Source of the DNA: Planctomycetota bacterium
GTDB taxonomy: Bacteria > Planctomycetota > JAJSAM01 > JAJVHW01
Reading direction: 5' to 3'
Assembly (NCBI GenBank): GCA_965248445.1
Contig: CBDFJG010000003.1
Coordinates: forward strand, 448,001 to 512,000
DNA: 64,000 nucleotides
Shown: in pieces, positions 24,879 through 35,051 of the stretch
Layout: each line of letters opens with the position of its first letter
How positions within the stretch are numbered: the stretch's first letter is position 1
Notes under the pieces: generated by a model
What the model was told of the DNA's origin: nothing
The model's input: only the letters and a program-made list of their open reading frames with translations
The model's database searches: none
Translations under genes and position numbers: made by a program

Positions 24879-26357
24879 ATGTCGCGACAGGCTCGGAACC
24901 TCTCTCGTTGGACCGTCGTGGCGCGACTACGGATCGTCGCCATCGTCGTCGGCGCGTTCGTCGTGGTGGGGAGTTGGTCCTCGGTCAGGGCGTACGTGCA
25001 GCGCTTCACCTCGTCCGCCGAGCACGTGGGAGACGCCGGGGGCACGGAGTTCTACTGTCCGATGCACCCCGCGGTGGTGCGGACCGAGCAGACGCCGTGT
25101 CCGAGCTGCGGCATGGCGCTGAGTCGTCGTCGGAGCGGCTTCGCCACCGGCGATGGGCGCATGAACGTCTCGCGATCGATGCTCGCTGCGGCGGGTGTTC
25201 GAACGTCCCACGCTGCGTGGCGGCCATTGACCAGAACGATCCGCGCGGCTGCCACGATCGCGTACGACGCGGACGGTCTCGCGCGTGTCTCATCCCACTT
25301 TGACGGCTGGATACGAGAAGTGCCGGCGGGGACCGAGGGTGACTACGTCTCGCGCGGTTCGACGGTTGCCGTCGTCGTCAGTTCCGACATCGCGGAGACC
25401 CATCAGCAGTTGATCTCGAAGGCCGGCCAGCTCCGACAGCTGGAGGCGCGTGGAGCCACGGCGGGAGTCTCGCGGGTCAAGGGCGAAGTCGAGGCGCTGG
25501 AAACTCAGTTCCGGCTCTGGGGCTTTCAGGACGAGCACATCGCGGAGCTCGCCGGGAGCGACCGCGCCGAGGAGTCCGTCGAGATTCGCAGCCGGTACGA
25601 CGGCGTCGTGACGCGCAGGCACGTGGTGCCGGGCGACTTCGTGTACGAGGGCACACCTCTCTTCGACCTGGCGGGCACGGAGACGATGTGGACGCTGCTC
25701 GACGTCTTCGAGTCGGATCTCCCCCACCTGGCCGTCGGGCTCGAGGTGACCGTGCGGCTCACGTCGAGCCCCGGGACGGAGCTGACTGGAGTGGTCGCGT
25801 TCGTCCCGCCTGAGCTCGATCCGGATCGTCGCACGGCGGTCGTTCGGTGCGAGCTGCCGAATCCCGACGGTCGGCTGCGCGCCGGCATGGTCGCCGACGC
25901 CGAGATCAGGGTCCGTCTGCGGTCGAGAGAGCCGTACCGGTCCATGGAGTACCCAGCGGACGCCACGGTGCGCGTGGTCTACACCTGCCGGCATCACGAC
26001 GTTGTGCAGGACACGCCCGGCGTCTGCACGGCGTGCGGGACCATGCAACTCGTTCGGGAGGAACTCCCCGCCGGGCCGGGGCCGGACGACGTCCTGGCGA
26101 TCCCCGCACGCGCCGTGATCGACACGGGCCGACGGCAGTTCGTGTGGGTGGCCGTCGAGGACGGGACCCTCGCACGCCGAGAGGTGCGAGTGGGGCCGCG
26201 TGACGGGGCGTTCGTGCCCGTGATCTCGGGTCTTGTGCCTGGCGAGCGCGTCGTCTCCGAGGGCGCGTTCCTCGTCGATGCCGAGCACGCGCTCGATCCC
26301 GCGTCTGCGTCCACGTACTACGGAGCCGCCCACACCTCCGCGGACGACGCGAGGTGA
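24879..26357 (+). CDS. cusB: Cu/Ag RND efflux periplasmic adaptor with heavy-metal-binding domains
   Basis: YCPMHP...CPSCGMAL, a second YTC..H...CTACGTMQL, and a membrane-fusion-protein core. Confidence 0.9.
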   Translation: MSRQARNLSRWTVVARLRIVAIVVGAFVVVGSWSSVRAYVQRFTSSAEHVGDAGGTEFYCPMHPAVVRTEQTPCPSCGMALSRRRSGFATGDGRMNVSRSMLAAAGVRTSHAAWRPLTRTIRAAATIAYDADGLARVSSHFDGWIREVPAGTEGDYVSRGSTVAVVVSSDIAETHQQLISKAGQLRQLEARGATAGVSRVKGEVEALETQFRLWGFQDEHIAELAGSDRAEESVEIRSRYDGVVTRRHVVPGDFVYEGTPLFDLAGTETMWTLLDVFESDLPHLAVGLEVTVRLTSSPGTELTGVVAFVPPELDPDRRTAVVRCELPNPDGRLRAGMVADAEIRVRLRSREPYRSMEYPADATVRVVYTCRHHDVVQDTPGVCTACGTMQLVREELPAGPGPDDVLAIPARAVIDTGRRQFVWVAVEDGTLARREVRVGPRDGAFVPVISGLVPGERVVSEGAFLVDAEHALDPASASTYYGAAHTSADDAR

Positions 26358-29300
26358 TTCGCGGTCTGATCGAGCACTGCGTGCGGCGCCCGGTCGCGAC
26401 AGTGCTCCTCGCAGTGCTGGCTTGCGGGGCCGGGGCCGCTGCGATGTCGCGGGTGCCGATCGATGCGTTGCCGGATCTCTCCGAGCACCAGGTCATCGTC
26501 TTCGCCGACTGGCCGGGCCGGAGCCCGCAGGAGATCGAGGACCAGGTCACGCGACCGCTTTCCGTGGCCCTTCAGGGGCTCGCCGGAGTGCGCGACGTGC
26601 GTTCCTCGAGCGACTTCGGCTTCTCGATGGCCAGCGTCATCTTCGAGGACGGGACCGACTTCTACTTCGCGCGCGAGCGGGTGACCGAGCGGCTCTCGAC
26701 GGCGGCGCAACGCCTGCCCGCCGGCGTGCTGCCGTACATGGCGCCCGACGCGACCGCGCTGGGTCAGGTGCTCTGGTACACGATCGACGGCAGCGATCAC
26801 GACCTCGGTCAGCTGCGGGAGATCCAGGACTGGTACGTACGCGACCAGCTCGCGTCCGTCGCCGGTGTGGCCGAGGTCGCCGCCGTGGGCGGCGCGCCGG
26901 TGGAGTGGCAGGTCGATGTCGATCCACATCGGCTCCGGCAGTACTCGGTGTCCCTGGGCGACGTGATGCGCGGTGTCAGTGCGAGCAGCTCAGCGATGGG
27001 CGCAGGCGTCGTACATCGCGGCGGAACAGAGTACGTCGTGCGCGGCGTCGGCTGGGTCGAGACCGTCGACCAGCTCGAAGCGACGGTGGTGGCCTCCCGC
27101 GGCCCGGCTCCGATCCGGGTCCGCGACGTCGCGCGAGTGTCACTGGGGCCGGGCTTCCAGCACAGTGTGCTGGAGAAGGACGGTCGCGACGCAGTCGGGG
27201 GGGTCGTGGTGATGCGCCACGGCGCGAACCCCGCGGACGTCATCCGGGACGTCCGCCGCAAGATCGCGGAACTCGCGGACGGGCTGCCCGAGGGCGTCCG
27301 CGTCACGCCGTTCTACGATCGCACTGAGCTGATCGACGGCGCGATCCACACCGCGGGCTGGATGCTCGTCCACGAGATCCTGATCGCGTTCGTACTCGTC
27401 CTGCTCGTAATGCGTCACGTCCGTGCGTCGCTCGTCATCTGCGTCGCGGTCCCCGCAGCCGTGTTGCTGTGCTTCGGGCTGATGTGGCTCTTCGACGTGT
27501 CGGCCAACATCATGTCGCTCTCGGGGATCGCGGTCTCGATCGGTGTGCTCGTCGACCAAGCTGTCGTCATGACGGACAGCGCCATGCACAGCCTGCGCGC
27601 GCGTTTCGGAGACGAGCGCGTCACGGGTGACACGCGCGAGATCGTCGGCGCCGCCTGCCGTCGAGTGGGGCGTCCGATTGCCTTCGCGGTGCTGATCATG
27701 GTCATCTCGTTCCTGCCGGTGTTTGCCCTCGGCGGGATCGAGGGACGGCTGTTCCGGCCGCTTGCGCTGACGAAGACGTTCGCGCTGGTCGCCGTGGGGG
27801 TCGTCTCGGTCACGCTGCTCCCCGCACTGCTGCCCCTCGCCCTACGTGGGCGCATCCGGCACGAGGAGGACTCGTGGGCGGTGCGGACGCTGATGGGACT
27901 GTACAGGCCGGTTCTCGAGTGGCTGACCGACCGGCACCGGCTCGTCATCGGTACGTTTCTGTTGGTGCTGGGCGTGGGCGCCGCTGCGGCGAGCTGGCTG
28001 GGGTCGGAGTTCATGCCGGCGCTCGACGAGGGCACGGTCCTCGACATGCCCGTCTCGGTGCCACGAATCGCAATTCCACAGGCGGCCGCGACCCTGAAGG
28101 CCAGGAATGCGCAGCTTCGCGGGTTCCCGGAGGTCGGCGTGGTGGTCGGCAAGGCGGGGCGCGCCGAGACACCGACGGACCCGAGTCCACTGGAGATGAT
28201 CGAGACGGTCGTGAACCTGCGGCCCCGCGATGGCTGGCCGTATCGCCACCTCGCCGAGGACGCCGCGCTAGGCGAGTTCGAGGAGGTGATCGCCTGGGCT
28301 GTGCAGGACGGGCTGCTGCGCGCTGAGGACTCCGAAGGACTGGCCGCCGAGGCACTCATCGAGACGCGGTCACGCTTCGATCGACGCATGCGGGAACTCT
28401 GTATCGCCGCGCAGGCCGAGTGGACGAGCGCGATCGCGAGTGAACTCCTCCGCGGGTGTCTGACACGGCTTGCCGCGACGATGGGCGTCCCGGTCGAGGC
28501 GGCCGAGAAGTTGGCCGCCAGCGCTGATGACGAGCCTCTGGAAGCGATCTGCGAGCGCTTGGTGATCAGCGTCGAACTACCCGATCTCCGCGACGTGTCG
28601 CGCCGGCTGGGCCGAGTGGTCGCGGACGGTCGGCAGGCTGGACGCGCCGCACTCGTCTCGGAACTCGAGGACCTGCGCGAGGACCTCATCGATCTCCGCG
28701 ACGACGCGTGGGTGCGCCGCAACGACGAGCTCCGTTGGCGGCTGGACGCCCAGGCTGCCGGGATGTTCGCGTCCCTGGCGCTCGACGTCGTGGCCGAGGA
28801 GGCCGAGCGTCGCGGCGTCCTCGTGCGGTCTCCGACGGACGAGGACAGGCGCGGCGTGGCCCGCTCGCGGTCGGGCACGTCTCGGCCGGTGCTGCGTCGG
28901 AAGTCGAAGCAGGACCTGATCGAAGAGCTGGATCGCGACCTGCGGATGCTCGGATGGGCGAACATCTGGACGCAGCCGATCGTGAACCGCGTGGACATGC
29001 TCGCCACCGGCATCCGCACGGAAGTGGGCGTCAAGGTGTTCGGCCCCGACCGCGCGACGATCCATCGCACGGCTGTCGACGTGGCGGGCGTGCTCGCCCG
29101 CGTGCCCGGCGCTGCGGACGTGTTCCCCGAGCAGACGATGGGCAAGCTGTACATCGACGTGGACGTGGACCGCGAGCGAGCCGCGCGCTTCGGCATGAAC
29201 GTCGCCGACGTACTCGAGACTGTCGCTACCGCCGTGGGCGGGCGTGCGACGGCACAGGCGATCCAAGGCCGCGTCCGCCGATCGATCCGAGTGCGCTACA

Positions 29301-30330
29301 TTCGCGATGCGCGGACCAGCGTCGAGGAGATCGAACGCGTTCTGGTGGCCACGCGGACTACGCCGGTGGGAGGAACCCAGCATCCCGATCCGATGCAACC
29401 GCCGAGCGGCGACGATGACGACAAGTCACAGCGACGCACGGCGCACGCTCACCACGGGGGCGGCGCCGGCGGCGCTTCGTCGTCGAGCGGGGGTGCCATG
29501 GGCTCGATGGCGGATGACCATGCGAGCGGGCCGGCTGGTGTCCAGCACGTCGAACTCCGAGAGATCGCGGCTGTGCAGGTGGTCGAAGGCCCGCCGGTCA
29601 TTCGCACCGAGAACGGACAGCTTCGCAGCTACGTCCAGCTGAACGTCCGAGGACGGGATGTGGTCGGCTTCGTCGATGACGCTCGCCGCGCCGTGGACGA
29701 GCAAGTTGTGCTGCCCGAGAGCGTGCATCTGGAGTGGGGAGGTCAGTTCCAGCACAGGTGCGCGCCAGGAAGACGCTGACGCTGGTCGTACCGCTGGTCG
29801 TCTTGCTGATCTTCGGCGTGCTCTACCTCACGTACCGGGACGCTGCGCACGCAGCGCTCATCTTGCTCGCCGTCCCAGGCGCCCTCGCCGGGGGAGTGAT
29901 CTTTCAGTGGATCCTCGACACCAACTTCAGCGTCGCCGTCTGGGTGGGCTTCGTTGCGTGCTTCGGCATGGCGACGGAGACCGGCATCGTGATGGTGGTG
30001 TACCTGCGGGAGTCGTTGCATCGCGCGCGCGACGAGGGACGGCTCACGTCGATCGATGCCGTCCGGTTGGCCGTCATCGACGGCGCCGTGCGGCGCTTGC
30101 GCCCGAAGCTGCTCACCGAGCTGACCACTGTCCTCGCCCTGGCCCCGATGCTCTGGGCCGTCGGCCCTGGCGCCGACGTGATCCGTCCCATGGCCATCCC
30201 GGTGATCGGCGGCATCCTCGTGGCCGACGAGTTCATCGACCTGATGCTGCCTGTGTTCTTCTTCCGCGTGGAGCGGCGGCGCTGGATGCGCCGGCAGGCG
30301 GCCGCAGCCAGTCCCGAGGCCGCGCGGTAG
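26354..30330 (+). CDS. cusA: CusA/CzcA heavy-metal RND transporter, frameshifted near 29755, with large insertions
   Basis: IDALPDLSEHQVIV, PDATALGQV, NIMSLSGIAVSIG, WTQPIVNRVDMLATGIRT. C-terminus in ORF 29734-30330 (GMATETGIVMVVYL, RLRPKLLT). Confidence 0.92.
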
Positions 30331-30652
30331 TCTGCCGCAAGCGGCTGCGCCGCATCGACAGCGTCGGGCCGCGGCCCCGCTCGGCGTCCCGTTCGCAGTC
30401 GCGGTCGGGTGTCGGGCGCCTTGGACTCGGCGGCCTCTCGGAGAGTGGCGAGGCGTTGGTGATGAGATGAGATCCCGTCTTCTCGACCAAGGTTCTTAGA
30501 GCGTTGTTGGCGCTGCCCGCCTCGCCTGCGCGCGGGGACCGCGCTCGGCGGGCCGCGAGGACAGGTTGGGTGGTGCGACGCCTTCGCCTGTCGGCTCCGG
30601 CATGAATCCGGGGCGGCGGAGCGCGCGCGAGTTCGCTCGGAAGACTCGTGGC

Positions 30653-31852
30653 TCATGCGGGCACCTGCGTGGCCGACGTGGCCACGGGTGTGGGCCGGGG
30701 GACGAAGGGCTGTTTGTTTCGAGCCACCCAGTGGACGGCGACCAGGAGCTTTCGCATGGACGCGACGAGGGCGACCTTCGGGAGCTTGCCCTGGGACCGA
30801 AGCCGTTCGTAGAAGGCGCGCAGCCAGGGGTTCCTGCGCACCGCGGTCAGGACGGGCATCCACAGGGCCCTGCGCAGCCGGGCGTGCCCGATGCGGGTGA
30901 TGGCGGCGCGTTGGCCCTGGTTGCGTCCGGACTGCTTGAGTGCCGGGACGACCCCGATGTATGACGCCAGCGCCTTGGCGTCGCGGAAACGAGTGATGTC
31001 GCCCAGCTCCGCGACGAGCCGCGCGGCGGTCTGTGGCCCGATGCCGTCGATGGTCGTGAGGAGCTTGCCGACCTCGTGGTGCTCCAGGGTTCCCCCGATC
31101 AGCTTCTCCAAGTCGCGAAGGCGCCGGCGCAGCAAGTCCAGATCCTCGCAGGCGTACCGGACCTGAGTGCGATAGGCCTCGGCGTGGTGGCGGCCCACGG
31201 ACGACTTGGCTGCACGGACCAGGTCTTGGGCAAGCTGCCGCCCGACTCGGTGACGTCCGTCGTAACGGAGCGCGGCGAGTCGCTTGACCGAGACACCCAC
31301 AAAGGCCTGCGCGGTGGGATGGCGGTTGAGCAGCGCCGTGGCGAGTTCGCTGTCGAGGGTGCGGACGTGGCGTGTGAACTCCGGGAAACCCAGGTCCACC
31401 AAGCGGTGAAGCCGGCGGACCCGGTCTCCAAAGTCCTGGACCACGCGATCCCTGAGTCTGACGAGCTCGCGCAGTTCCTCGGTGCCGGAGTCGGGCAGCC
31501 GCGTGGGCTCCGGGCGTTTCTGGCGAGCGAACCGGGCGAGCCCGAGGGCGTCGATGGCATCGGTCTTGGTCCGCTGCAGGTCCTCGCCGGCGAAGCGGTG
31601 GGTCCGCAGCGGATTGATCAGCACCATGGCGAAACCGCGCGAGAGAAGCTCCGCCGCCAAGTTGCGCCAGTAGTGCCCGGTCGCCTCCAAGGCCACGAGC
31701 ACGTCTCGAGGGACGCCGAGCAACTCGAAGAGCTCCTCGTAGCCCTGTGCGTCCTCACCGAAGGCGGTGGGCCGCACCAGGATCTCTTCGTCCTCGTCCA
31801 TCACCGCCACGACGTGCTTCTTCGAAGCGATGTCTATCCCCGCGTAGCGCAT
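30653..31852 (-). CDS. IS110 DEDD recombinase (399 aa)
   Basis: GIDIA, ALEATG, KTDAIDA, and C-terminal KQSG. RBS AGGAGG before the ATG. Confidence 0.95.
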   Translation of the reverse strand: MRYAGIDIASKKHVVAVMDEDEEILVRPTAFGEDAQGYEELFELLGVPRDVLVALEATGHYWRNLAAELLSRGFAMVLINPLRTHRFAGEDLQRTKTDAIDALGLARFARQKRPEPTRLPDSGTEELRELVRLRDRVVQDFGDRVRRLHRLVDLGFPEFTRHVRTLDSELATALLNRHPTAQAFVGVSVKRLAALRYDGRHRVGRQLAQDLVRAAKSSVGRHHAEAYRTQVRYACEDLDLLRRRLRDLEKLIGGTLEHHEVGKLLTTIDGIGPQTAARLVAELGDITRFRDAKALASYIGVVPALKQSGRNQGQRAAITRIGHARLRRALWMPVLTAVRRNPWLRAFYERLRSQGKLPKVALVASMRKLLVAVHWVARNKQPFVPRPTPVATSATQVPA

Positions 31853-31874
31853 CGTGCACCTCCTGTCATGCGAC

Positions 31875-32085
31875 GAGGAGGACCGGGAGCCTCGGAGCCG
31901 GCGACCGTACTCATCCTTGTTCATGCGAGGACGCGCGTCTGCGCGCCTCAGGATCCCGTCCGAGCGTGGGTCGCCGGTCGAGGGCGCCAATCTCATCTCC
32001 GAGGACTGCGCCTCGTGAAGGCCGCGGCGACCCTCTCCCGGCTCTCGTCGATCTCTGTCCACCGTAGGTCGCGGGCATGAGTGGA
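31875..32085 (-). ncRNA. IS110 bridge RNA with target- and donor-binding loops
   Basis: Two stem-bounded internal loops whose guides match the target (CGGCCTTC, GAGATGAGA) and the donor (GACGGGATC, ACAAG). Ends approximate. Confidence 0.88.
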
Positions 32086-32169
32086 CGTCATACAAGAAGG
32101 CCGGTCCCTGCCTCGGTGTAACCCGTAGCGGTTTCCAGAGGCGCTGACGGGCTTGCGAGCCCGAGGAGG

Positions 32170-33707
32170 GTACCCGTTCAGGTACGGCACCCGAGCCTGA
32201 CGCTCAGCGCGCGACCGGCAGCGCGACCAGCGCGGGCGGCGGTTGCCCGCGCACCGCTGCGTTCGTCGCGGCGACGAGGTAGTCGAAGACGTCGTCGCCG
32301 CGCTGGCGCAGCGTCGCCGTGACGGTCAGGATGCGTTCGACGAAGCGTAGATCGCGCTCGCTCTGACTGCCGTAGCAGCCCTTGCGCCAGAGCACCGGTT
32401 TGCGGACTGCGCGCTCAGCGGTGTTGTTGGTCGGCGAGACGCCGGGGACATCGGCGAAGGTCAGCAGCGCCTCGGCTCGGTCGAGCAGATGACGGCTCGT
32501 CCCGCGCACCTTCTTGTGCCGGCTCTCGGCGCCGCGGACGAGCAGGCGCACGAGCCGCTCCCACGTCGGGCGGAGTTCGCGCTGCATGCGCTCGCGATCG
32601 CCGTGCTCGGTGAAGTGCCGATGACTCCGCATCACCGCCTGCGCGAGCAGCACGGCCTGCTTGCCGAAGCGACGACCGCCGCGCGACCCCTCGGCCAGCG
32701 CGCGAAAGTCCCGCTCGAGATGCGCCCAGCAGACCTGGCGGCTCTCGACCGGGTGCTGATCGTACGCGCCCATGCGATCGGTCACGAGCACACCGGCGAA
32801 GCGTCGCCCGATCAGGCGGCGCATCGCGCCGGCGCTCCGCCGACGATCGATCCGGTGCGCGACCGCTGACTCCGACACGCCGCTCCAGAGCCAGTGGCCC
32901 TTTCCTCCGAGCGACCACGGGGTCTCGTCCACGTACGCGACGTCGCTTCGGCGCACGGCGCCGAGCGCCTCGGCATGTGCGGTTCCGAGGGCGCCCGAGA
33001 CGCGCTCCTCGATCGCGCTCACCGTGCCCGGCGACATCGACACGCCGATGACGTCGCGGAGAAGGAGACTCACCTCTCGCCGCGAGAGACGGAAGACGCC
33101 GACCAGGCCGGCGGTGAGTGCGCAGAGCCGCGGACCGAAGGGACTGCGCGTCACGCCCGCCGGCAGCGGCGCAGTCGTCGTCTCCTCGCAGTCGCGACAG
33201 CGAGCACGATGGAGGCGGTGCTCGGTGACCTCGACCAGACGCGGCGGGATCTCGAAGACCTGATGGCGGTGTGGCGGCCGCGTGAGCAGCTCAAGTTCGC
33301 TGCTGCCGCAGACGCTGCACTCGCTCGGCCGGTGGTCCTCGACCGAGTCGACCTCGGACTCGTCGATGAGCTTGCGCGTCGTGCCGGTGTGTCCGGGCTG
33401 AGCACCCTGGCGCTTCTTCGACGGCGGCTTGCGCTCACGACGCTTCTTGCCCCACGGCGGGTCCGACGATGGTGGCCGCGAGGACGTGCGCGAGTCTCGG
33501 CGAAGTCGGCTCTCGAGATCGTCGATCCGCGACGCTTGGCGCTCGATCACCTCGTCGCGCTTCGCGACCTCATGCTCCAGGTCATCCACGCGACGGACCA
33601 GACCTTCTACGAGTTCCCGGAGATCGCCGCCGCCGCCCACATGGGCTTCATCGTCCTCGCACGTCGCGATCTGGATCCGGGATCAGACGCAATGCCTGAA
33701 CGGATAC
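32170..33707 (-). mobile_element. Intact IS66 (ISBst12-like); transposase 32204-33640
   Basis: Ends GTACCCGTTCAGG and CCTGAACGGATAC, 8-bp duplication CGAGGAGG. Confidence 0.95.
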
Positions 33708-33723
33708 CGAGGAGGAACCGGCT

Positions 33724-34767
33724 ATGGCAAAGGCTACACGTTTCGTGATCGGGATGGAGCTGGGCGACCGCGTGGTGCATGTGTGTGTGCTGGACCGCAA
33801 GACGGGCGAGATCGTGGGCGAAGGGCGCGTCGCGACGACGCGTGCTCGCCTGACGGAGTTCCTCGGCGAGATCGAGCGATCGAAGGTGGTGATGGAGAGC
33901 GGGACGCACTCGCCGTGGATCAGCCGCCTCGCCGAGGGTCTTGGTCACGACGTCATCGTGGCCGATGCGCGTCGGCTGCGCGCGGTGTGGGACTCGCCCA
34001 AGAAGAGTGACCGCCGCGACGCGCTGGTTCTGGCGCAACTGGGGGCCGGGCACCCAGGGCTCCTTCATCCGGTGTCTCACCGGAGCGAGCGCGCACAGAC
34101 CCACATGGTCGTGCTCCGAGCGCGCGAGCGTGTGGTCGACGCGCGTACGAAGTTGGTCAATGCCGCGCGGGGCTCGGTGAAGTCGCTCGGGTACCGATTG
34201 CCCGCTTGCTCCGCTCCGAGCTTCCATCGCAAGGCACGCGAGGCGGTGCCGGAAACCCTCGTGGACGCCCTGGCCCCGCTGTTCGACGCGATCGCAGCGT
34301 TGACGGAGAGCATCGCGCGCTACGACCGCGAAGTCGAGCGTCTCGGCCGCGACGCGTATCCGGTGACACGACGCCTTCGCGAGGTACCCGGCTGCGGTCC
34401 CGTCACCGCGCTCGCCTACGTGCTCGTCGTCCACGACCCAGAGCGCTTCTCGCGCAATCGCGACGTGGGCGCGTACGTCGGTCTCGTCCCGCGCCAGGAC
34501 CAGTCGGGCAAGATCGATCGCCAACTCAGGATCACGAAGTGCGGCGACCGGATGCTCCGCCGGCTGCTCGTGCAGTGCGCGCACTACGTGCTCGGACCAC
34601 ACGGGCCCGACAGCGACCTGAGACGCTGGGGTCTGGAGCTGGCGCAACGGGGCGGGAAGAACGCGAAGAAACGGGCGACCGTCGCGGTCGCCCGCAAGCT
34701 CGCCGTGCTCTTCCACGCTCTGTGGATGAAGGACCGCGCGTACGAGCCGCTCGCTCGAGCGGCGTGA
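33724..34767 (+). CDS. IS110 (IS1111-type) recombinase
   Basis: IGMELGD, VMESG, KSDRRDA, DQSG, VAVARKLAV. Confidence 0.93.
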   Translation: MAKATRFVIGMELGDRVVHVCVLDRKTGEIVGEGRVATTRARLTEFLGEIERSKVVMESGTHSPWISRLAEGLGHDVIVADARRLRAVWDSPKKSDRRDALVLAQLGAGHPGLLHPVSHRSERAQTHMVVLRARERVVDARTKLVNAARGSVKSLGYRLPACSAPSFHRKAREAVPETLVDALAPLFDAIAALTESIARYDREVERLGRDAYPVTRRLREVPGCGPVTALAYVLVVHDPERFSRNRDVGAYVGLVPRQDQSGKIDRQLRITKCGDRMLRRLLVQCAHYVLGPHGPDSDLRRWGLELAQRGGKNAKKRATVAVARKLAVLFHALWMKDRAYEPLARAA

Positions 34768-34769
34768 TG

Positions 34770-35045
34770 ACCGACTGAACACCACGAACAACACGGGAGT
34801 CTGATCGACCGAGCAACGCGCCCACCCGGGCGATGCCCATCTCCCAACTCGAAGGCGCGACGACTGCGGTGGCTGAACGGGCCCGGCCCCGGCCGAGGCC
34901 GCGTAACTGATGGCAGCGTCGCCCTCGAGCGGATGCCTTAACGTGCACCGGGTCCAAACGACCCCTTGACGAGTGCGGATGGATGCGTGCAGAGGGAGCC
35001 GGCAACGCACAACGTGGGCGGATCGCCAAGTCGATCCGACTGCTT
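34770..35045 (+). ncRNA. Candidate bridge/seek RNA of the IS1111-type element
   Basis: Non-coding region downstream of the recombinase, the known position in IS1111-type elements. Guides not resolved by eye. Confidence 0.6.
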
Positions 35046-35051
35046 GACATC

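Follow-up and report, generated by a model that had tools for sequence, protein, structure and literature searches.

An IS110-group insertion sequence nested in another mobile element

The window analyzed here is a 64 kb stretch of the genome of a Planctomycetota bacterium (contig CBDFJG010000003.1, positions 448,001 to 512,000), with a G+C content of 68.0%. Between positions 30,460 and 35,049 it contains one mobile element inside another: an IS110-group insertion sequence (IS) on the minus strand, here labeled ISA, and an adjoining IS1111-group element on the plus strand, labeled ISX, which is in turn split by an IS66-family element (Table 1). Very probably ISA is an intact member of the IS110 group and belongs with the bridge recombinase elements of the IS621 type. 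Every testable feature that defines this type at the sequence level was found in ISA, aside from the promoter, which reached 7 of 12 consensus positions. An original prediction, made from the letters of the window, had proposed an intact bridge recombinase in a high-GC host; the source genome (G000; 5.4 Mb in four contigs, C1 to C4, 92% complete) indeed has 68.4–69.1% G+C in its four contigs.

Read on the minus strand, the left junction is ...ACCGGCCTT-CT-TGTATGA (in longer context ...GGGACCGGCCTT-CT-TGTATGACG...) and the right junction ...GACGGGAT-CT-CATCTC (...GAGAAGACGGGAT-CT-CATCTCATCA...), so that CT is present at both. These junctions had been placed exactly in the original prediction, whose span of 30470–32105 takes in 9 nt of flank in addition. 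The non-coding ends measure 243 nt on the left and 181 nt on the right. In 19 of 20 homologues the right end is shorter, 28–99 nt when counted from the end of the protein match, and it is 192 nt in one. No long terminal or subterminal inverted repeats were noticed on reading the ends of ISA, for which no dedicated inverted-repeat scan was run.

The sole long open reading frame (ORF) of ISA has its best start at an ATG at 31852, with GGAGG upstream, giving a protein of 399 amino acids. It covers the full DEDD_Tnp_IS110 profile (PF01548; 2.6e-37) and matches Transposase_20 (PF02371; 3.2e-29). The nearest proteins with solved structures, as found by phmmer, are the transposases of ISCro4 (2.9e-40) and IS621 (4e-37). 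Residues D7, E56, D98, D101 and S308-G309 align with D11, E60, D102, D105 and S241-G242 of IS621, where D11, E60, D102, D105 and S241 are named as catalytic (PMC11208158). The intactness of the recombinase and the retention of the DEDD residues and the serine, both claimed before, are hence borne out.

A bridge RNA in the left end of ISA

Because Rfam gave no relevant match and a single-sequence fold gave no target loop, we used comparison with homologues to examine the RNA predicted in the left end. A protein scan of species-representative genomes yielded 25 loci with 54–73% protein identity (L012–L036). Twenty-two of them have a complete left end and form, together with ISA, the 23 rows of alignment A1, which align well with ISA. 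On A1 we set a three-way structure consisting of an outer stem, a target loop with its hairpin and a donor loop with its hairpin. A covariance model, R1, was built from the 22 homologues, leaving ISA out.

R1 matched the window at full length with 156.8 bits (E 7.5e-32), its sole match in 64 kb. It recovered the same stretch in the three other copies of ISA in the genome. An element with 69% identity from another genome, absent from the training set, was matched at 132.8 bits. Within A1, 92.1% of 961 cells were paired under the structure, compared with 39–54% when the 3′ partners were slid by 1–3 columns; 17 of the 42 pairs were changed on both sides, compared with 5–8 in the slid controls. 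None of 500 column shuffles reached any of the five observed measures. The donor hairpin, helix 7, was paired in 78%. The two-loop RNA layout of the IS621 type, as originally predicted, is supported by the R1 match, by these compensatory changes and by the covariation between guides and flanks described below.

Guides and their DNA partners

Four guide segments had been proposed, CGGCCTTC (32024–32017), GAGATGAGA (31999–31991), GACGGGATC (31960–31952) and ACAAG (31920–31916), and the minus-strand reading and the motif positions reproduce all of them as well as the hairpins. Their delimitation changed in three respects. The 9-nt right target match is present, and is better divided into an 8-nt right target guide (to CT plus CATCTC) and the first handshake position. 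The right donor guide includes ACAAG and is longer and discontiguous, CAT..ACAAG standing opposite CTTGT..ATG, a pattern reported for IS621 (PMC11208160, PMC11208158). The 8-nt left target guide matches target positions 1–8 as predicted, and the last base of its loop, an A, is unpaired opposite the core T.

In the published guide model, the 3′ side of a loop is complementary to the top strand, core included (PMC11208160). The target of ISA with its core reads ACCGGCCTTCTCATCTC; the left target guide matches it at 7 of 7 non-core positions and the right target guide at 4 of 4 variable positions. The length of the right target guide, 8 bp with the core counted in, had been noted as apparently long and is common to the whole clade. 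Longer natural right target guides, and a gain in specificity with a 7-bp guide, have already been published (PMC11208160).

The same guide register holds across the homologues. We fixed their flank ends by the conserved CT-TGTA start and the match between right end and donor guide, not by the target guides. A regex-based extraction of the loops misparsed several loci including ISA, and column-based extraction from A1 was used instead. Left target guides matched their own flank at a mean of 3.95 of 7 non-core positions, compared with 2.61 for the flanks of other loci (n = 22), and right target guides at a mean of 2.9 of 4 variable positions, compared with 1.35 for mismatched pairs (n = 20). 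These means were reached in 0 of 20,000 label shuffles, with or without ISA. Many single homologues match in part (2–3 of 7); the signal is a statistical one, and ISA is among the cleanest cases.

The donor side varies in step as well. The left donor guide has one variable base, which is a G in ISA, a C in L016 and a T in the others, and the right end has the same base, L033 being mismatched. Where the right donor guide contains GCUUG, as it does in one subgroup, the left ends read CTTGTAA, not CTTGTAT. In 20 of 22 rows the first handshake base of the donor loop forms a Watson-Crick pair with position 7 of the target; ISA and L028 have a wobble there. Since the register of the matches in ISA (8, 9, 9 and 5 nt) is fixed by the structure, the contribution of chance is negligible.

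From this, the following scheme can be proposed. The left end would encode a bridge RNA of ~170–190 nt with two internal loops. Its target loop, with CGGCCUUC and GAGAUGAG, would read the two strands of ACCGGCCTT-CT-CATCTC, and its donor loop, with GACGGGAUC and CAU..ACAAG, would read the joined ends GACGGGAT-CT-TGTATG. The DEDD/serine recombinase would excise ISA as a circle, with strand exchange at the CT core as in IS621. The programmed target is the left subterminal repeat of ISX rather than a host gene, so that ISA is nested inside ISX. The sequences themselves show the anatomy of ISA, the fold in comparison with its homologues, the matches of the guides and four copies at a single target; transcription, circle formation, guide dependence and reprogrammability are here inferred from the family.

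Table 1 Features of ISA, ISX and the IS66-family element in the window.
Feature	Position	Strand	Basis or remark
ISA, IS110-group element, 1,623 bp without core copies	30472..32094	minus	junction reading; four genome copies with the same ends
Left CT core	32095..32096	minus	junction reading
Right CT core	30470..30471	minus	junction reading
Recombinase gene, 399 aa + stop	30653..31852	minus	PF01548, PF02371; D7, E56, D98, D101, S308
Bridge RNA core: outer stem, target-binding loop, donor-binding loop (predicted)	31878..32044	minus	model R1
Predicted 5′ stem-loop GTCCAC...GTGGAC ahead of the RNA core	32057..32086	minus	folded; region conserved in A1
Target-binding-loop hairpin (CGAGG/CCTCG)	32000..32015	minus	helix 3: 98.3% of cells paired, 2 pairs changed on both sides
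Donor-binding-loop hairpin	31927..31949	minus	helix 7: basal pairs well kept, distal part poorly aligned
Left target guide CGGCCUUC	32017..32024	minus	equals target top strand, positions 1–8
Right target guide GAGAUGAG, 8 nt	31992..31999	minus	complementary to CT+CATCTC
Target-loop handshake guide AU	31990..31991	minus	pairs with donor 7, 6 (T, A); inferred from the register in PMC11208158
Left donor guide GACGGGAUC	31952..31960	minus	equals right end GACGGGAT-C (including C8)
Right donor guide CAUGAACAAG	31916..31925	minus	ACAAG:CTTGT, CAU:ATG, two bases skipped
Donor-loop handshake guide GA	31914..31915	minus	faces target 7, 6 (T, T): G·T wobble, A-T
Candidate −35 box TTGGTC	30485..30490	minus	right end; active only with ends joined; predicted
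Candidate −10 box TATGAC	32087..32092	minus	left end, begins at its third base; predicted
Cut-off ISX tip: 7-nt terminal extension + first 3 nt of left repeat	30460..30469	plus	10-nt right-flank agreement
Remainder of ISX left end, up to IS66-family insertion	32097..32169	plus	
ISX body + most of right end; 345-aa recombinase gene 33724–34758	33707..35049	plus	
IS66-family single-gene element in ISX	32170..33706	minus	PF03050, PF20042, PF13005; 8–9 bp duplication CCGAGGAGG

The target is the left subterminal repeat of ISX

The left flank of every ISA copy is an oppositely oriented gene for an IS110-family protein of 345 amino acids with an 82-nt leader, i.e., ISX. Homologues of ISX were found at 12 loci in other genomes, with 37–54% protein identity. 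They start with (A)GATGGGATGAGAAGGCCGG and end with GGCCTTCTCATGGAAG, which constitute an 11-bp subterminal inverted repeat. ISX and these homologues carry ATGAGAAGGCC and GGCCTTCTCAT, with a left end of 82 nt and a right end extending ~300 nt downstream of the gene. The IS1111 group is described as having subterminal repeats of 11–13 bp, extensions of 7 bp on the left and 3 bp on the right, and a long non-coding region downstream of the gene (PMC11187229). Judged by these characters ISX falls into the IS1111 group, and the 10-nt tip common to the loci fits the 7-nt extension.

The site occupied by ISA is 10 bp from the tip of ISX, within the subterminal inverted repeat on its left. The left tip of ISX, TGATGAG-ATGAG|AAGGCCGG, read on the other strand, is exactly the ISA target CCGGCCTT-CT-CATCTCATCA. 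Of the 12 foreign homologues, 10 have an uninterrupted left end, ATGAGAAG, which bears out the empty site as rebuilt with one core. In its exact 16-nt form this empty target has no free copy in the genome; five sites lie within 2 mismatches of it, a single one of which (C4:1674408) has just one. The empty target rebuilt in the original prediction thus has no literal counterpart in its own genome and is preserved uninterrupted in the foreign ISX relatives. We also reject that the common 75-nt left flank is a part of ISA, or that ISX inserted beside ISA, since these relatives carry the sequence without interruption and its GGCCGG stretch co-varies with the ribosome-binding region of each.

The genome contains four copies of ISA. 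Where they can be aligned they are identical, save for a single base in a piece of 70 nt. Two copies are intact, the one in the window and C4:1972621-1974299. The copy at C4:85626-88347 is split by a 1,043-bp element, and that at C1:580455-584713 by the same element and a 1.5-kb IS66-family element, each of these insertions being accompanied by an 8-bp repeat of ISA sequence. All four copies have the left flank GGGACCGGCCTT-CT. The right flank is CT-CATCTCATCA in three of them and CT-CATCCCATC, with one mismatch, in the C1 copy. The other copies hence lie at the site that the guides match, as the original prediction would have it. Because the right flanks beyond the ISX tip differ, the four copies represent distinct loci; in copy c3 the agreement extends over just the 10 nt of the cut-off tip. 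ISX is occupied by ISA in all four of its genome copies, and ISA does not occur outside ISX. The right repeat of ISX, AGGCCTT-CT-CATGGA, matches the target in part and is unoccupied. Solo pieces of ISX are a left tip (C4:1674396-1674430) and two 106-nt right ends (C3:295656-295761 and C2:855568-855673).

The non-routine part of these findings is the target, an IS1111-group subterminal repeat for which an IS110-group element is programmed and which is fully occupied. It is possible, at somewhat less than even chances, that the bridge RNA is specialised on this inverted repeat, one guide-directed transposon parasitising another. If so, ISA would either disable ISX or travel inside it as cargo. 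Otherwise the site may be no more than a single fortunate target in a genome rich in insertion sequences.

Possible origins of the four copies

The main rival explanation accepts the guides as real and holds that the copies spread after one insertion, either with ISX carrying ISA as cargo or by recombination or conversion between ISX copies. Both tips of ISX are still present, as the cargo route would need, and the complete occupancy of ISX together with the confinement of ISA to it agrees with such a spread. The genome is also rich in recombination-promoting repeats, one other IS having more than 70 copies. The ISX copies belong to two types ~17% apart, and the ISA copies within them are identical. 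ISA therefore entered ISX copies that had already diverged, or was homogenised later. Despite this divergence, copies c1, c3 and c4 (the last on contig C1), which span both ISX types, have 100% identity over the first 118 nt of ISX beside ISA, a conversion-like mosaic that looks like the outcome of gene conversion seeded in ISA. Against a spread of this kind, co-transposition as a unit misfits identical ISA in two such different ISX types, unless conversion homogenised ISA. Moreover, the right side common to the loci is just 10–18 nt long, too short for ordinary homologous recombination to bring ISA in. We regard this explanation as rather unlikely, though it is the strongest of the rivals: the sequences would suit four independent insertions, fewer insertions followed by conversion, and movement of ISX with ISA inside. 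If the copies did spread by cargo or conversion, the copy number of ISA would tell little about its own activity.

Public sequencing runs, for which assembled contigs possibly from related strains were used, add some support to the main reading. In one sediment run of 2020, identical ISA adjoins the tip of ISX and a third flank. ISA variants that are ~95% alike and extend 55 nt into the left end of ISX occur in two runs from marine sediment. Circle joints were absent from the assembled contigs of these runs, a form of data that drops rare forms. In 40 other related genomes ISA was not found, save for one 69% match and short matches at chance level; the guides of this 69%-identical relative are directed to a different site.

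Folding, promoter and unpaired positions

Several observations weigh against a smoothly working bridge RNA. No bridge RNA family in Rfam 15 was matched by the sequence, and the seven weak matches obtained were unrelated and all far below gathering scores. The single-sequence fold of 31875–32095 had a z-score of −1.83, was matched in stability by 7 of 200 shuffles, and lacked the target loop. Its minimum free energy (MFE) was −86.3 kcal/mol, compared with −71.0 for the canonical fold, a gap of 15.3, or 12.9 with the guides forced open. In the free RNA the left target guide has a predicted unpaired probability of 0.06, since its stem would sequester it by pairing with the 5′ strand (AGGGUCG with CGGCCUU); the left target guides of the homologues are freer, at 0.18–0.60. 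The loop of this guide ends in CA and offers no pair opposite core T9, where 17 of 23 clade members have CT, and IS621 is reported to strongly prefer pairing with both core strands (PMC11208160). The first handshake base of the target loop, A, also pairs with T7 of ISA's own target, and in IS621 no strand exchange took place when both handshake positions paired in this cognate manner (PMC11208158).

The promoter is a further such point. IS621 has a promoter split across its joined ends (PMC11208160). In 14 of 20 homologues the joined ends yield TTGAC(A/G)-17 nt-TATG(T/A)(T/C), which matches TTGACA-17-TATAAT at 9–10 of 12 positions. At the same register the joined ends of ISA match at 7 of 12 and the predicted promoter is weak, with the reservation that the consensus of the host may differ. 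Finally, the one-mismatch site at C4:1674408 is an unoccupied solo ISX tip of 25 nt, identical in sequence to the occupied target of the C1 copy (c4); it is part of a second copy, 1.38 kb long and 99.6% identical, of the right flank at C1.

The folding results are tempered by the homologues, in which the gap between MFE and canonical structure is 12–46 kcal/mol and the canonical structure is missed in all 22. Thermodynamic folding thus misses the canonical fold in general, and we set single-sequence folding aside as a test. The original prediction had suggested folding the region and scoring it with bridge RNA covariance models, with guides in stems rather than loops counting against it. Of these, the score was obtained with our own model R1, in place of an Rfam family, and the loops appear in the comparative structure, whereas the free-RNA fold lacks the target loop and pairs the left target guide.

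Taken together, the fold, T9 and the handshake lower the confidence in the efficiency of ISA, not in its identity. The sequestered left target guide, the weak promoter and the unpaired T9 would also suit the idea that ISA is a recently silenced relic, complete in anatomy and immobile, its RNA misfolded or not made, to which the two of four copies broken by other insertion sequences and the unoccupied site could be added. This we consider improbable. The reading frame is intact with its catalytic residues, the four copies without differences point to recent spread, the failure to fold is common to all the homologues, and the promoter score rests on a consensus that may not be that of the host. 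That the guide matches arose by chance, or as a by-product of similarity between ends and flanks without any guide RNA, has next to nothing in its favor beyond the lacking Rfam family and the non-significant fold. Four in-register matches speak against it, and it is contradicted by the strong match to an independently built model, by compensatory stem changes and by guide-flank covariation in homologues from other genomes.

Comparison with known systems

Many bridge RNAs of the IS110 family have been catalogued, running into the thousands, and ISA leaves the known mechanism unchanged. With IS621 and ISCro4/IS622, ISA has in common both protein domains and the five catalytic residues, D, E, D, D and S (PMC11208160, PMC11208158). 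The likeness extends to the CT core, the right donor CT-TGTAT and a guide RNA in the left end with the target loop preceding the donor loop. In both loops the 5′ sides read the bottom strand and the 3′ sides the top strand. Further common traits are the discontiguous right donor guide and the handshake positions; a promoter split over the joined ends may be another, the candidate boxes of ISA being weak.

The protein similarity to IS621 is distant (phmmer E about 1e-37), and the recombinase of ISA has 399 amino acids, compared with 326. Its right target guide comprises 8 bp including the core rather than 4, and its left target guide is unpaired opposite T9. In contrast to IS621, ISA is very G+C-rich and has an insertion sequence as its target, where IS621 has a REP element. 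The right end of 181 nt differs from those of IS621 and ISCro4 and is longer than in ISA's own homologues.

The uncharacterised homologues from metagenome-assembled genomes (MAGs), L012–L036, resemble ISA in their alignable left ends, the three-way RNA, the donor guides save for one co-varying base, a right target loop with the conserved UGAGAUU, and a target with CT-CA. They differ in the left target guides, the variable right target bases and the flanks, and an ISX-like end was the site of none of the loci examined. L012, L014, L019, L020 and L036, which come from different MAGs, closely resemble one another in their right flanks (CT-CATTGGAC...), and L014 and L015 have the same left flank. 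This suggests that these homologues also aim at a conserved repeat or mobile element.

The nearest precedent for the target is reportedly the insertion of IS4321/IS5075 into the inverted repeats of Tn21. There, too, an element with a DEDD transposase is aimed at the inverted repeat of another transposable element. IS4321/IS5075 belongs to the IS1111 group and is aimed at Tn3-family transposons, whereas ISA belongs to the IS110 group and is aimed at the IS1111 group, both partners being RNA-guided. In the open-access literature that we searched, no IS110-group element was described as targeting the inverted repeat of an IS1111 element, which is no proof of absence.

ISA would represent a natural bridge recombinase from a very G+C-rich environmental bacterium, with target, donor, handshake and an 8-bp right target guide readable from the genome, and as such a possible additional scaffold for bridge editing. 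It may also serve as a natural case for how the guide RNAs of transposons evolve toward other mobile DNA, and its nesting may silence or mobilise the host element.

Neighboring elements

The window copy of ISX is ~1.44 kb long, split by the IS66-family element and without its last ~20 nt, which would contain the right inverted repeat. In its recombinase an E replaces the first catalytic D (IGMELGD, compared with IGMDLGD in the C1 copy). The right ends of the two copies, at ~34990–35040 in the window and C1:586040-586090, differ in a patch (GCAACGCACAACGTGGGCGG vs. GCATCGGCTGCGGTGGACGG, and ACTGC vs. ACGCC) within an overall identity of 98.9%; this could be due to changed guide segments of ISX's own RNA. 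Stretches with GATGG and ATGGA in the downstream region of ISX resemble its tips.

In the left end of ISX (32097–32169 and 33707–33723) and of its foreign homologues, GGCCGG(T/C)CCC is complementary to the region of the ribosome-binding site, and both partners co-vary between genomes (e.g., GGTCAGCATCC with GGATGCTGACC). Because the GGCCGG stretch, as read by eye, co-varies with the region upstream of the start codon in each homologue, we assign it to ISX and not to a host target. This pairing may give rise to a stem masking the transposase start.

The IS66-family element encodes a transposase of 478 amino acids with DUF6444, zf-IS66 and DDE_Tnp_IS66 domains, and the ISA copy on C1 is likewise split by a ~1.5-kb piece, at a break of the corresponding kind. 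The 1,043-bp element has the ends CATGCATATCCGG.../...CCGGATATGCATG and lies in two ISA copies (C4:86925-87967 and C1:582968-584008) with 8-bp repeats; it was also found at the end of one ISX and in several further copies in the genome. A repeat of ~1,573 bp (e.g., C4:1671419-1672991) is present in more than 70 copies with 99.4–99.9% identity, in line with a genome heavily colonised by insertion sequences.

On the other side, ISA lies ~140 nt downstream of a gene for an RND efflux pump of the AcrB/CusA type (26354–30330, plus strand). This gene consists of two overlapping ORFs in different frames, 26354–29779 and 29734–30330, and the split reflects either a frameshift or a sequencing error.

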